NCBI GenBank assembly: GCA_965203745.1
Contig: CBDBDK010000002.1
Span: 194,904 to 258,903 of the forward strand
Origin: an uncultured Candidatus Binatia bacterium
GTDB taxonomy: Bacteria > Desulfobacterota > Binatia > Bin18
Length of the DNA stretch: 64,000 nt
Reading direction: 5' to 3'
In this document: piece by piece, positions 1 through 5,800 of the stretch
Layout of the letters: every line of letters starts with the position of its first letter
Numbering within the stretch: position 1 is the stretch's first letter
Notes under the pieces: model-generated
The model's input: only the letters and a program-made list of their open reading frames with translations
Database searches by the model: none
Told to the model about the DNA's origin: nothing
Made by a program: the position numbers and the translations under genes

Positions 1-462
1 GAGAATGATGTGGAGGGCAACAAAGGCCATTGGAATCCACTTTTCTATGTGAGTGACGGCGCTATAGGATGCCCCGCGACCCTCTCCGGCCAACTGCCAC
101 TCATAGGCATACAGCGCCACTGGCAAATGTTCTTCAAGTTGGTGGATGATCTGGAATTTGACATCGTTCAGGTCACTGTGGGACTTGATGATCTGATACC
201 AAAGCCCAGAGACCAGGATGCCGAGTATTGGAACCAGTATCGCCCAATAGCTCTGAACGAATCCCTCAGATTGAATGCCGTAGAGAGTCACGAGCGCGAT
301 GTTGAGTGTGAGGAGATAGCGACTCGAAGCCACCCGACGCGTGCTGACATTCTCGGCTGACTGCACATACAGCTTATATTGTTCAAGAAGGTCCGTGCCG
401 AAGGAATCCCCATATGTCTCTTTCGTGTAATGAAACAGACACCCATGCGACTGCTGGGACAT
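1..462 (-). CDS. SLATT-like two-transmembrane protein (partial; 3' end beyond window start)
   Basis: Not in the ORF track because it has no stop in the window. Manual reverse-complement translation from ATG at 462..460 gives 154 aa (MSQQSHGCLFHYTKETYGDSFGTDLLEQYKLYVQSAENVSTRRVASSRYLLTLNIALVTLYGIQSEGFVQSYWAILVPILGILVSGLWYQIIKSHSDLNDVKFQIIHQLEEHLPVALYAYEWQ...). It has two clear hydrophobic helices followed by an amphipathic region. GGAGAG RBS lies 10 nt upstream, inside the TIR gene 3' end, and the ATG is 4 nt after the TIR stop. Assignment to SLATT/DUF4231 is from memory of that family's architecture and its known linkage to DUF1863. Confidence 0.5.
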   Translation of the reverse strand, partial: MSQQSHGCLFHYTKETYGDSFGTDLLEQYKLYVQSAENVSTRRVASSRYLLTLNIALVTLYGIQSEGFVQSYWAILVPILGILVSGLWYQIIKSHSDLNDVKFQIIHQLEEHLPVALYAYEWQLAGEGRGASYSAVTHIEKWIPMAFVALHIIL

Positions 463-466
463 TAGG

Positions 467-850
467 CTATTTCTCTCCACGAATCAGCCGCCTCAGATTT
501 TCCCATGTCCATCTATAAATCTTGTCCGAATGACGTGCCATGCCAGGCTTGGTGCATTTCCCGCGGGGCCTCCCCCATAGTAAGAAGTACGGGTTTCCTT
601 CCTCGCGCGTAATGGTTAGTTCTGCCGCAACGCCTTTCGCTGTATGGGTGTGCCGTCCGCAAATAACTATCGTGAGATCAGTTCGACGGATACGGTCCCG
701 GACTTTCTCTTTCCAATTCCCGGTGAACGGCTCCTTGACTGACCAATCCGCAATAGAAAAAGGTGAATCTGGATTTTTTGCCTGACCAACCAAAGCATTC
801 CTCAGTTCCTCGTCATGGTCGAAGTCAAAACTGATGAAGACGCGTTTCAT
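467..850 (-). CDS. TIR-like domain protein (DUF1863 / ThsB-like)
   Basis: 127 aa. N-terminal MKRVFISFDFDHDEEL and central TDLTIVICGRHTHTAKGVAAEL match the MTH538/DUF1863 TIR-like fold used by Thoeris ThsB. Start is 9 nt after the KAP stop. Confidence 0.7.
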   Translation of the reverse strand: MKRVFISFDFDHDEELRNALVGQAKNPDSPFSIADWSVKEPFTGNWKEKVRDRIRRTDLTIVICGRHTHTAKGVAAELTITREEGNPYFLLWGRPRGKCTKPGMARHSDKIYRWTWENLRRLIRGEK

Positions 851-859
851 TGCTATTCC

Positions 860-2311
860 TCAACCTCCATCAATGAGGTCGGTGGACAGTAGTTCAAGTC
901 GCCTAACTGAATACTTGAAACCGATTCCTCTAGACGGTCTTATCTGTCCACGTAGATAATTAAATTGACCGATGACCTCTTGCGCGTGATCTCGATTCGG
1001 GTCCCGCGACTCATTATCTGATTGTTCAGTCTCAACTATAGCTTGATAATGGGACAAAAGTGGCGAACTGAAGGACTCCGATGAAGCCCTATAGGTCAAT
1101 GTATTTTCGTAAGCGTAGGCAACGATATTTGCCTCAAAGATGATTCCATGGTCCGTATGACGAAAAGAGGCTGTCCCCGGCAAGCTGAATACGGTGTCAA
1201 CAACCTCCCTGTCAGAAGCCTCACCGCGGGCAAAACGGTGATACAAGTCAGTGTCAACCGTCCTGACTATTAGGGCCACAACTGCCGTTATTGCAAATGA
1301 TCTTTTGTCACCGCGTAAAGATGCAAACACCACACCAAGGCGATGGAGCGCCTGTGCCACCCGCCGAAGGCTGAGATCGGGTGTCCCGAAGAAGCCCCTC
1401 AATAAACCTCGGACGAAATCGGCGTCTTGCCGCCCCTCGTTGTCCTGTGTTCGGTTGAAATAGTCGTCAATTTGTATCGCACTGAGTGTTTCCTCGATGA
1501 ACGCCCTCCTATCCGCCTCGGGCAATCTGAAATCGACATCAAAGAACCGGCGCAGATAGCCTTGAGCATCAAATTCACTACCGTACAGCGCACGAATAGA
1601 GTGCACCAGCTCGGCGCGATTAACTGCCAGCGCGAATATAATATGGTCCACTGTGAACAGGTGCTTAGCGACTTCAAGAAGTTCAATTGCATAAGATGGC
1701 CGGCACCTGTCCAACTCGTCTATAACCACAACCAACGGCCGACCATCTCTACTTTCCGATAAGGTGCCCGCCATGTCTTGAAGAGTGCTTCTGAACGCTT
1801 GGACAGACTCCTGTTCCTTTCGGTAGCTGGAAAGGCGCTCTTCGGCATAGGAAGCCAGGGCTTGACCAGCCTCCTTTTCCACCATGGGGCTGACATCCAA
1901 AGCCCCAGCAGTTGCAATTTTGATAACAACCGGAACAGCCCGTTGGACAATCTCCTTCGCCGCGCCCTTCATGGCGTCGATCTTGTCGGTAATCGACTCA
2001 GGCTCGCCTTGGCGTAGCCCAGACATTAGTTCGCCAGAAAGAGCGATAAAGGGATCACCGGTAAAATCGGTCTCCCACGCATTGAATTCGACAACGGGAA
2101 AACCCTCGTTCCGCAGGTGTTGAGACCAGATTTTGAGAAATGTTGTCTTTCCTGTGCCCCAGGCAGCATCAATCGCTAAAACACACGGCCCGTCTATAGA
2201 ACTAACGATGTGGGTGAGTATCCTGGCTGGCTCTCTGCGCCCGAGAAGATCGTTTTTGAACGGGTCGTCCTCGGGTACCTCTATTTCCTTTGGTTGAATG
2301 CGTATTCCCAT
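860..2311 (-). CDS. KAP family P-loop NTPase
   Basis: 483 aa. Walker A in KAP context (LAIDAAWGTGKTTFLKIW ... FNAWETDFTGDPFIAL) and Walker B/KAP motif (LVVVIDELDRCRPSYAIELLEVAKHLF). Starts 16 nt after the hsdS stop. ~47% GC against a ~65% background. Confidence 0.75.
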   Translation of the reverse strand: MGIRIQPKEIEVPEDDPFKNDLLGRREPARILTHIVSSIDGPCVLAIDAAWGTGKTTFLKIWSQHLRNEGFPVVEFNAWETDFTGDPFIALSGELMSGLRQGEPESITDKIDAMKGAAKEIVQRAVPVVIKIATAGALDVSPMVEKEAGQALASYAEERLSSYRKEQESVQAFRSTLQDMAGTLSESRDGRPLVVVIDELDRCRPSYAIELLEVAKHLFTVDHIIFALAVNRAELVHSIRALYGSEFDAQGYLRRFFDVDFRLPEADRRAFIEETLSAIQIDDYFNRTQDNEGRQDADFVRGLLRGFFGTPDLSLRRVAQALHRLGVVFASLRGDKRSFAITAVVALIVRTVDTDLYHRFARGEASDREVVDTVFSLPGTASFRHTDHGIIFEANIVAYAYENTLTYRASSESFSSPLLSHYQAIVETEQSDNESRDPNRDHAQEVIGQFNYLRGQIRPSRGIGFKYSVRRLELLSTDLIDGG

Positions 2312-3791: not shown

Positions 3792-3812
3792 ATCTTCGTC
3801 CGTTACCCTGCG

Positions 3813-4058
3813 TCAATTCGACGCCCGATGAAACACCAAAGCATCCACGATATCACCGGTCTTCGGCGCGTCCTTACGGAGCAACTCTGGTTTCTCATGC
3901 TGTCCTTCCCAGTCCTCGGTTCCAACATCCAGTTGAATCCTGACGACCGAGATACGCTCTGGCGCTATGTCGTCGAAGCCGTCTTCGTAGCCGCTCACGA
4001 CAACGCGCAGGTCTTTTGGGTAGGACTCTAACATCTGTATCAACTCTTTGACGGTCAT
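3813..4058 (-). CDS. hypothetical small acidic protein between hsdM and hsdS
   Basis: 81-aa ORF co-oriented with hsdM/hsdS. GGAG RBS ~9 nt upstream of ATG. Acidic composition. No family recognised. Confidence 0.4.
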   Translation of the reverse strand: MTVKELIQMLESYPKDLRVVVSGYEDGFDDIAPERISVVRIQLDVGTEDWEGQHEKPELLRKDAPKTGDIVDALVFHRASN

Positions 4059-4120
4059 CTTCTATCGCTCCAATGTGAGGACACGATTTGTGACCTCAAG
4101 TCGTCAAACTCCTGCTTTCC

Positions 4121-5800
4121 CTAGTTCCCATACCCCAGCCTCTTCAGATTTGTCTCTATAGCTCCGTCCAGCTTGGTTGCTTCGGTTTGCTGTCCCCTCC
4201 ATTGCGCCACCAGTCGTTTCATCTGGTGCTCGAACGGCTCGCCATCATCCTCTTGCGCTTCCGCGCCAACGTAGCGGCCGGGGGTCAGTACATAGCCGTG
4301 TTTGCGTACCTCTGCCAGGGTAGCGCTTTTGCAGAAGCCGGGGATGTCGGCGTAGGCGTTGACACCCTCACCCCGGCCCCCTTCGACTGGGCTCAGAACA
4401 GGCTCTCCCTGCGAGGAGGAAGGAGGGTTAGTGCGCCAGGCGTGGTAGGTGTCGGCGATGCGGGCGATGTCGGCGGCGGTCAGTTCGCGGTGGGTGCGGT
4501 CCACCATGCGACCGAGTTTGCGGGCGTCGATGAAGAGGATTTCACCGTGCCGACCGCTGGCCTGCCGGTTCCTGCGATTGCGGGCCAGAAACCACAGGCA
4601 GGCCGGAATCTGGGTCGAATAGAAGAGCTGACCGGGGAGGGCCACCATACAGTCCACCAGGCTGGCTTCGATCAGGCTTTTCCTTATGCTGCCTTCGCCC
4701 GACTGGTTGGACGACATGGAGCCGTTGGCGAGCACGAAGCCGGCCGTACCGGCCGGTGCCAGGTGATGGACGATATGTTGTACCCAGGCGAAGTTGGCAT
4801 TGCCTTTGGGCGGGGTGCCGTACTGCCAGCGCTTGTCTTCGGTCAGCCGTTCGCCGCCCCAGTCGGAGATGTTGAAGGGCGGGTTGGCCAGGATGAAGTC
4901 GGCCTTGAGATCGGGGTGACGGTCGTTGTGGAAGGCGTCGCCGTGGGCGATCTGTCCCTCGATGCCGCGAATGGCGAGGTTCATCTTGGCCAACCGCCAG
5001 GTGGTGTAGTTGGACTCCTGACCATAGATCGAGATGTCGGCCTTGGTGCCCTGCGGGGCGCTGCCACCATTGCCGTTGCCGGATTGATGGGCGCGGATGA
5101 AGGTGATCGACTGCACGAACATGCCGGAGGAGCCGCAGCAAGGATCATAGACCCGGCCTTGATAGGGCTCCAGCATCTCGACCAACAACGTGACCACGCA
5201 GCGCGGGGTATAGAACTCACCGCCCTTCTTGCCCTCGGCACTGGCGAACTGCGACAGAAAGTATTCGTAAACGCGGCCCAACACGTCCTTGGACCGGGCT
5301 TCTGCGTCGCCGACCTGGATATTACTGATGAGGTCGATGAGTTGGCCGAGCCGCTGCTTGTCGAGTGCCGGGCGAGCGTAGTCCTTGGGCAGCACGTCCT
5401 TGAGCGCTGTATTGTCGCGCTCAATACCGGTCATGGCGTCATCAACGAGTTGGCCAATGGTGGCTTGCCGCGCCTGGGCCTTGAGGTGAACCCAGCGGGC
5501 CTCGGGCGGCACCCAGAAAATATTCTCGGCGCGGTACTCGTCGGGGTCCTCAGGGTCGGCGCCCTCGGCCCGTTCGGTTTCGAGATGGGCGTGTATCTCC
5601 TCGAAGGCGTCGGAGATGTATTTCAGAAAGATCAGGCCGAGGACGACATGCTTGTACTCGGCGGCGTCCATGCTGCCGCGCAGGGCGTCGGCCATGCTCC
5701 AGAGTTCGGCCTCGTAGCCGGTTGTCGCGCCTTGGGTGTCCCGCGAGTGATCGTCTTGTCTCTTCTGTTTTTGTCCTCGTGCCACATCTTTTCCTTTCAC
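4121..5800 (-). CDS. hsdM: Type I restriction-modification DNA methyltransferase subunit HsdM (N6-adenine)
   Basis: 559 aa. HsdM N-domain ([16 protein letters not shown]), SAM-binding [10 protein letters not shown] and catalytic LANPPFN motif. High GC, unlike the downstream genes. The true start may be an internal Met. Confidence 0.9.

Follow-up and report, generated by a model that had tools for sequence, protein, structure and literature searches.

A Type I restriction–modification operon from Candidatus Binatia with a KAP NTPase and a putative Thoeris-like TIR–8xMP pair as apparently separate cargo modules

Defence genes embedded in Type I restriction–modification (RM) operons have been described for PrrC (EcoprrI), RloF (C. 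jejuni), and TgvAB (V. cholerae VPI-2; PMC11411939), and the 'guilt-by-embedding' survey of Payne et al. (10.1101/2024.01.29.577857) counts 17,432 genes that lie inside BREX, DISARM, or RM systems. A second group of related systems is Thoeris, for which a 2025 preprint, 'Systematic discovery of TIR-based immune signaling systems in bacteria' (10.64898/2025.12.03.692087), proposed 29 putative types and validated types V–XI. Several of its validated effectors are small membrane proteins (ThsF/DUF2270 and ThsH/SLATT) for which ring assemblies with pockets of positive charge are predicted, and ThsF and ThsH set a precedent for ring-forming transmembrane (TM) effectors gated by isomers of cyclic ADP-ribose (cADPR). 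Here, we analyzed a 64,000-nt stretch of an uncultured Candidatus Binatia bacterium (contig CBDBDK010000002.1; hereafter, the window, meaning the whole stretch), which begins with a minus-strand operon combining Type I RM genes with genes for a KAP-family NTPase, a short ThsB-type TIR protein, and a membrane protein of the 8xMP family, the last of which is cut by the window edge at position 1.

We read this locus as the leading portion of a Type I RM operon whose slot between hsdS and hsdR holds two independent modules, namely the KAP NTPase and a Thoeris-like TIR–8xMP pair, with hsdR lying past the window edge (probability of roughly 0.65). Type I RM operons that carry defence cargo are an established kind of locus, of which this one presents a new combination. 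An earlier sequence-only reading had regarded the architecture as undescribed; it is precedented in kind by PrrC, TgvAB, and the survey of Payne et al., and its KAP protein is represented in PADLOC and its TIR clade in the Thoeris catalogue. The genes that carry the argument are listed below.

4121..5800, minus strand: hsdM, methyltransferase subunit of a Type I RM system, 559 aa (N6_Mtase 1e-106, HsdM_N 2.5e-27, PADLOC MTase_I 1e-217)
2328..3791, minus strand: hsdS, specificity subunit of a Type I RM system, 487 aa (Methylase_S 2.6e-19 in two matched stretches; Specificity_I 1.8e-100 over the full length)
860..2311, minus strand: KAP-family P-loop NTPase, soluble, 483 aa, apparently a single-gene cargo module (PF07693 8e-36; PADLOC PDC-S20 over the full length)
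467..850, minus strand: short TIR protein of ThsB type, 127 aa, opening the TIR–8xMP cassette (PF08937 ThsB_TIR 2.8e-9)
1..462, minus strand: 8xMP-family membrane protein (PF24838 1.8e-33), following TIR in the cassette and shortened by the edge to 154 of approximately 167–173 codons

The profile hidden Markov model (HMM) searches agreed with the earlier assignments of HsdM, HsdS, the KAP NTPase, and the TIR-like protein (N6_Mtase, Methylase_S, PF07693, and PF08937), and the domain matches together with the layout of related loci bore out the proposal that defence-type genes lie inside a Type I RM operon. The same reading had noted that no hsdR was in view. This is literally correct, as tblastn with a related HsdR gave no match over the whole 64-kb window; as evidence of absence it does not stand, because the window edge interrupts the operon approximately 13–19 codons before the 8xMP stop codon.

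Related loci were collected by a GTDB scan of species-representative genomes, which retrieved 80 KAP loci (41–80% identity) from many phyla. A co-oriented hsdS was located directly upstream of KAP in 15 of these loci, usually together with hsdM (71–88% identical) and often with a small open reading frame (ORF), orf81; hsdR was found downstream of KAP in 14 of the 15, starting 30 nt to approximately 8.5 kb past KAP. The nearest relative, also from Binatia (L002; HsdM 88% and KAP 80% identical to those of the window), has the order hsdM...hsdS–KAP–TIR–8xMP (truncated)–DUF1828–...–hsdR. The hsdR gene was also downstream in four distinct RM-embedded TIR–8xMP loci without KAP (L086/L087, L094, L099, and L100). 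As judged from these loci, the layout of this RM lineage is hsdM, orf81 in some members, optional genes, hsdS, a cargo slot, and hsdR. Since this layout puts hsdR after the slot, the window most likely ends inside the slot, hsdR of the source genome most likely lies approximately 0–9 kb past window position 1, and the missing hsdR is most likely a window-edge effect. With hsdR most likely just past the edge, the cargo would complement restriction rather than replace it, and the earlier proposal that the trio stands in for HsdR is at odds with the hsdR genes found in the 14 hsdS–KAP loci and the four KAP-less loci.

In L002, the 8xMP gene (11894–12241) matches over its first 44 codons only and then diverges, and hsdR (14067–17251) is split into two ORFs in different frames; these breaks reflect either decay of the locus or long-read assembly errors. 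Many of the KAP/RM loci come from uncultured marine metagenome-assembled genomes of Binatia, Acidobacteriota, Nitrospirales, Dehalococcoidia, Latescibacterota, and others (L012, L031, L056, L065, and L068). Isolate names such as APA_bin, COS4_bin, RHO1_bin, and CAR1_bin hint at a possible origin in sponge microbiomes.

The sequence-only reading had further suggested that KAP, TIR, and the membrane protein might together make up a single abortive-infection system of three genes that complements or supplants HsdR; in the form considered here, it supplants HsdR in a Type I locus lacking hsdR. The three genes are co-oriented in the window with gaps of 4–16 nt, their order recurs in L002 and L009, and hsdR was not found within the 64 kb. 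However, TIR and 8xMP follow KAP in only these two of the 80 KAP loci, and none of the 23 other 8xMP loci (18 metagenomic, L100, and four on plasmids) contains KAP. The nearest relative L002 and 13 other embedded KAP loci have hsdR downstream, and clustering of neighbouring genes gave no link between KAP and TIR. The closest relatives were 92% identical for TIR, 92% for 8xMP, and 82% for KAP, and this difference indicates that KAP and the TIR–8xMP pair have different histories. In L100, which holds the closest TIR relative (92%), the order is hsdM–HepT–(MNT)hsdS–DUF2806–TIR–8xMP–Phd–PIN–hsdR, with no KAP. The three-gene explanation is largely refuted by these neighbourhood data and is highly improbable; judged by gene neighbourhoods, KAP and TIR–8xMP are two independent modules and not one unit.

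Elsewhere in the lineage, the hsdS–hsdR slot is occupied by SIR2-like, DUF4365, DUF2806, Phd/PIN, reverse transcriptase (RT), M78/DUF4411, and unannotated genes, and the hsdM–hsdS interval holds HepT/MNT and M78 genes. A protein of approximately 585 aa was also observed between hsdM and hsdS in seven loci, including L009 (5651–7408). An alternative is that the cargo consists of plasmid-type addiction modules or unrelated hitch-hikers in a recombination hotspot and does not serve defence. Both modules are known from computation only, a TIR–8xMP pair is located among toxin–antitoxin and partition genes on a small plasmid, and PADLOC has no 8xMP model. Such cargo would not readily account for the repeated embedding in RM operons beside SIR2, RT, PIN, HepT/MNT, and STAND genes, for the full-length match of KAP to a PADLOC candidate derived from defence islands, or for the origin of the TIR clade in a defence-island scan. 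We consider a non-defence role very unlikely and infer an anti-phage activity for the cargo.

The TIR–8xMP pair recurs far beyond this lineage. A metagenome scan with an 8xMP alignment retrieved 18 loci, and a TIR gene was immediately upstream of 8xMP in 15 of them, that is, in all those with detectable upstream sequence (approximately nine distinct sequences, down to 37% identity). The gap between the two genes was a few nt to approximately 20 nt in the metagenomic loci and 3–4 nt in L100, L009, and the window, and the two genes are probably translationally coupled. A TIR gene also adjoins an 8xMP homologue on plasmids of Haematospirillum, Synechococcus, Clostridium perfringens, and the archaeon Halorubrum, so that the plasmid hosts span alphaproteobacterial, cyanobacterial, clostridial, and haloarchaeal lineages. 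In some loci, two TIR types flank 8xMP in a TIR–8xMP–TIR arrangement (L095 13–1395, L096 2028–3410, and L104 2956–4308). In C. perfringens, a caspase gene precedes TIR–8xMP–TIR; this locus consists of two adjacent systems, caspase with TIR (type IV) and 8xMP with TIR, placed back to back.

The Thoeris catalogue (10.64898/2025.12.03.692087), whose TIR proteins were collected by a defence-island scan, contains in its Table S1 one entry with 72% identity to the TIR of the window (E 9e-70), which received the label 'Caspase - Type IV' by way of its cluster representative, a way of labelling of which the authors themselves warn. The neighbour of the window TIR clade was 8xMP in every locus examined (L082–L096 and L100), and the label is probably an artefact of cluster-representative labelling. 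Membership of the window pair in type IV Thoeris, with a caspase partner, was rejected, as there was no caspase gene in the window and none was detected in related TIR–8xMP loci. The same table contains a '3TM' class of putative effectors, whose TIR partner is of another type. The TIR of this class is 56% identical to a C. perfringens TIR flanking 8xMP, and that TIR type flanks 8xMP in Synechococcus and Halorubrum too; because it adjoins 8xMP in these three hosts, '3TM' is probably 8xMP. The possibility that '3TM' covers the exact TIR clade of the window was also rejected, as the '3TM' entries examined all carry that other TIR type and a search for pairs of cluster and label gave no match.

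The window TIR matched PF08937 with 37.7 bits (cut-off 21.2) and belongs to a family tightly constrained in size (2,129 clusters of 127–129 aa). Its profile matched the ThsB structures 6LHY and 9B7D (E approximately 1e-5), and the sole solved structure matched by the single sequence was BcTir (8FZ9; E 3e-4, full length). Across 29 sequences, including divergent ones and BcTir, the only invariant residues were F5, S7, F8, W46, and E77, and Glu77, the catalytic residue, aligns with the Glu of the solved relatives BcTir and 8WCF.

The sequence-only reading had described the membrane protein as a two-TM, SLATT-like protein. This identity was rejected: three, not two, hydrophobic helices were found, no SLATT or DUF4231 model of Pfam was matched at E<=0.1, and the only match was to PF24838, the 'octameric membrane protein family (8xMP)', with 115.7 bits (cut-off 30) over profile positions 1–130 of 136. 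The full-length homologue in L009 scored 120.5 bits on the same model, and homologues at 92% identity are 167–173 aa long. Full-length homologues have three hydrophobic or long helical segments and two strongly conserved cytosolic helical regions; the family name implies a putative octamer. No PADLOC, NCBIfam, or PHROG family was matched, a phage origin was rejected since viral contigs yielded no relative, and literature searches under '8xMP' or 'octameric membrane protein' returned nothing relevant. The 8xMP family is likewise tightly constrained in size, with 975 close clusters; a profile search gave approximately 2,900 clusters at 50% identity. Divergent members were observed after a Ser/Thr-kinase-like gene (L097 1337–3151 and 3474–3812) and as the C-terminal module of beta-propeller/beta-helix proteins of 1,500–1,700 aa (P0463 and P0510). 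Rosetta-stone evidence from a TIR–8xMP fusion was sought and rejected, as no recognizable TIR was found in any of 10 longer 8xMP proteins scanned; what extends these proteins is either additional TM helices or giant extracellular stretches of beta-helix/propeller type.

The KAP protein matched PF07693 (KAP_NTPase) with 124.2 bits (cut-off 20) and the PDC-S20 model PDLC04959 with 1e-122, its residues 5–476 aligning to profile positions 3–460 of 464. The Walker A and B motifs are intact (G52, G54, K55, T57, D198, and E199 invariant in 26 homologues), and the protein was likened to RdrA and STAND ATPases. Aravind et al. (2004) reportedly described many KAP proteins, though not all, as having TM helices within the P-loop domain. 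In the window protein, no hydrophobic segment exceeded the Kyte–Doolittle threshold, which places it with the soluble type. In its structure model, an insert at residues 118–160 was of low confidence (predicted local distance difference test, pLDDT, <50), and the C-terminal half formed an unannotated all-helical domain. A Pfam scan gave no nuclease or other effector domain and no similarity to PrrC/AAA_13, and no paper was found under 'PDC-S20' or '2TM-1TM-TIR'. Phage-encoded homologues (BK070154.1, MT835542.1, and MK672802.1, including Vibrio phage Va_90-11-286_p16) are 28–30% identical over approximately 75% of the length; they match phrog_8614 at 2e-65 and are annotated merely as hypothetical proteins.

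The best relatives of KAP are 82% identical (80% in the GTDB scan). In approximately one fifth of the related loci, KAP is directly after hsdS, and most others had no RM genes detected within approximately 10 kb. Unbiased clustering of all ORFs within 6 kb returned only HsdS (18 loci, median 46 nt upstream), HsdM (16), and HsdR (14) as recurrent neighbours. These data bear on the main rival for this module, namely that KAP is a PrrC-like guard that docks on HsdMS(R) and triggers toxicity when phage anti-restriction proteins disable restriction. KAP occupies the position of prrC between hsdS and hsdR, directly after hsdS (approximately 16–50 nt) in 15 loci from several phyla, and PrrC, which Payne et al. 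(10.1101/2024.01.29.577857) cite, is the classic RM-embedded guard. A protein bound to the RM complex is, however, difficult to reconcile with most of the 80 loci, in which no HsdS, HsdM, or HsdR homologue was detected within approximately 10 kb, including an 81%-identical copy that lies alone among housekeeping genes (L001). Embedded and free-standing copies are intermixed in the similarity tree, unrelated genes (SIR2-like, DUF2806, and one for a 420-aa protein) hold the same position in KAP-less relatives, and KAP has neither the effector domain nor the PrrC similarity that a guard of this sort would suggest. We regard the guard as quite unlikely and favour the self-contained module.

The preferred reading, a Type I RM operon with two independent cargo modules, would imply three layers of defence expressed from a single operon. 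The first would be classical Type I restriction–modification, with HsdR presumed from the relatives. The second would be KAP, acting as a self-contained ATP-dependent sensor or switch. In the third, by analogy with Thoeris, TIR would sense infection and turn nicotinamide adenine dinucleotide (NAD+) into an ADP-ribose-derived signal. A homo-oligomer of 8xMP would take up this signal at its conserved cytosolic face and would open or disrupt the membrane, so that phage replication would stop. This mechanism is proposed on the basis of homology and of what is known from Thoeris types II, V, and VII; that TIR and the membrane protein act in abortive infection, which had also been suggested earlier, is plausible.

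Several observations weigh against this reading. In L009, hsdR was not found within 10 kb downstream, and hsdR of the source genome is deduced from relatives. PDC-S20 and TIR–8xMP are both modules catalogued by computation only. Domain scans recognized no ligand-binding domain in 8xMP; a PDB sequence search, a PDB profile search, and Foldseek returned nothing meaningful for its structure; and its monomer model was of low confidence (pLDDT 69; predicted template modelling score, pTM, 0.40). In more distant members of the 8xMP family, the place of TIR is taken by a kinase-like gene, additional TM helices, or giant beta-helix proteins, and because divergent members have other partners or fusions, the family is broader than the TIR-linked clade. 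In the 'WxxxE' motif of TIR, Trp is replaced by Gly73, and for BcTir, the closest solved relative, a lack of NADase activity and a mode of action through a protein complex were reported (10.1101/2023.05.26.542521).

Some of these points favour the main rival for the TIR–8xMP layer, in which TIR is itself the effector, an NADase depleting NAD+, and 8xMP is a membrane sensor, anchor, or regulator acting by direct contact with no diffusible signal. The lack of a known signal-binding domain in 8xMP, the lost Trp, and the protein complex of BcTir would fit it, the probable translational coupling suggests a stoichiometric complex, and the authors of the catalogue caution that TIR may be the effector in types not yet verified. 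The window TIR, in contrast, falls in ThsB-type clusters, of which the members tested produce signals, small TM proteins with predicted rings are the effectors in Thoeris V and VII, and one 8xMP family pairs with two TIR clades, as expected of an interchangeable effector. An effector TIR is therefore unlikely, though it stands ahead of the other alternatives. Quite unlikely, too, is a joint version, in which KAP would be a new PrrC-like guard of the Type I RM complex and TIR–8xMP an unvalidated Thoeris type, composed of a 'type IV'-catalogued TIR and an oligomeric membrane effector without a known signal-binding domain.

On rechecking, the six minus-strand ORFs and their coordinates matched the earlier description exactly, as did the intergenic gaps of 62, 21, 16, 9, and 4 nt. 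Two further features of the operon are as follows.

5809..5836, minus strand: candidate sigma-70-like promoter TGGACA-16-TATTAT just upstream of the GTG start codon of hsdM (10 of 12 positions match)
3813..4058, minus strand: orf81, small conserved ORF after hsdM, 81 aa, with homologues directly after hsdM in relatives

The count of promoter-like sites in the region was not above chance, and the site upstream of hsdM is a candidate only. Shine–Dalgarno-like motifs precede the start codons of KAP, TIR, and 8xMP. Homologues of orf81 with 46–57% identity are located directly after hsdM in L004, L006, L033, L047, L062, L068, and L069 (for example, L004 7593–7835, L033 7563–7805, and L068 7702–7944); no Pfam, PADLOC, or NCBIfam family was matched, and the sole match was a weak, N-terminal one to phrog_5861. 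The guanine-plus-cytosine (GC) content was approximately 0.50–0.54 over orf81, hsdS, KAP, TIR, and 8xMP and approximately 0.60 (0.56–0.66) in hsdM and the flanking genes (window 1–4000 versus 4000–16000), and the lower GC suggests a more recent exchange or acquisition of the operon's distal part than of hsdM. Directly beyond the hsdM promoter region, large plus-strand ORFs (6008–8101, 8109–9947, and 10458–12569) mark the boundary of the defence locus. Judged by eye, their N-termini (MGYRIAIDVGGTFTD...) resemble hydantoinase/oxoprolinase, and the ORFs are putative A and B subunits plus a second A-type paralogue.

The locus exemplifies a tendency already known for Type I RM operons, that of harbouring defence genes as passengers. 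Its RM lineage occurs in many phyla, mostly of uncultured bacteria, and the varied cargo of its slot (KAP, TIR–8xMP, SIR2-like, RT, DUF2806, DUF4365, and PIN/HepT toxin–antitoxin genes) makes it a handy place to seek new defence genes. TIR–8xMP is a widespread cassette of two genes, present in haloarchaea as well as in several phyla of bacteria, a part of which the catalogue appears to file under the wrong effector. KAP NTPases have no defined defence mechanism, and the recurrent hsdS–KAP–hsdR order offers a concrete guard hypothesis.

Among known systems, the KAP-family defence ATPases RdrA of RADAR, PifA, and QatA differ from the window KAP, which is much shorter; there is no RdrB adenosine deaminase in the window operon or among the recurrent KAP neighbours, and the QatBCD partners of QatA are absent here. 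PADLOC PDC-S20, of which the window KAP is a member, is a computational candidate only, derived from defence islands. PrrC combines an ABC-type ATPase with an anticodon nuclease, whereas the window KAP gave no AAA_13/PrrC-type or nuclease match; coupling to the RM enzyme is a feature of PrrC, and the window cargo is likened to it by gene position.

BcTir of BcTir/BcTpr is likewise a stand-alone TIR of approximately 130 aa in a two-gene operon, but it is paired with a TPR/glycosidase protein instead of a membrane protein. Type IV Thoeris (10.1101/2024.10.24.620036), with a short TIR, a caspase-like protease, and N7-cADPR, resembles the window in its short stand-alone TIR, and the window TIR is 72% identical to the type IV-labelled cluster member; the C. 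perfringens caspase, however, pairs with another TIR type than the window clade. The window also resembles Thoeris with membrane effectors, namely type II (ThsA, TM and Macro), type V (ThsF/DUF2270, 3 TM), type VII (ThsH/SLATT), and the '3TM' class, which share a short ThsB-type TIR and a small multi-TM protein, a probable homo-oligomer, in a two-gene operon. The window 8xMP is, by HMM, not DUF2270, SLATT, or Macro; it matches PF24838 only and falls outside the validated Thoeris effector classes (SIR2-SLOG, TM-Macro, SLOG-nuclease, caspase, DUF2270, DUF6650, SLATT, CMP hydrolase, TIR-SLOG, ion channel, and HIT). It resembles SLATT effectors in kind, as these are small helical membrane proteins of nucleotide-signalling conflict systems.

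Compared with the RM-embedded systems, the window differs in its cargo: the KAP NTPase and the TIR–8xMP pair are named neither in PMC11411939 nor in the accessible text and supplements of 10.1101/2024.01.29.577857, the latter giving only generic P-loop matches for KAP. In its arrangement, it resembles them. By comparison with relatives, the window cargo lies between hsdS and hsdR, of which the hsdS side is visible in the window, and, as for PrrC, TgvAB, and RloF, unrelated defence genes are co-transcribed between the hsd genes, with a cargo that varies between homologous RM operons.

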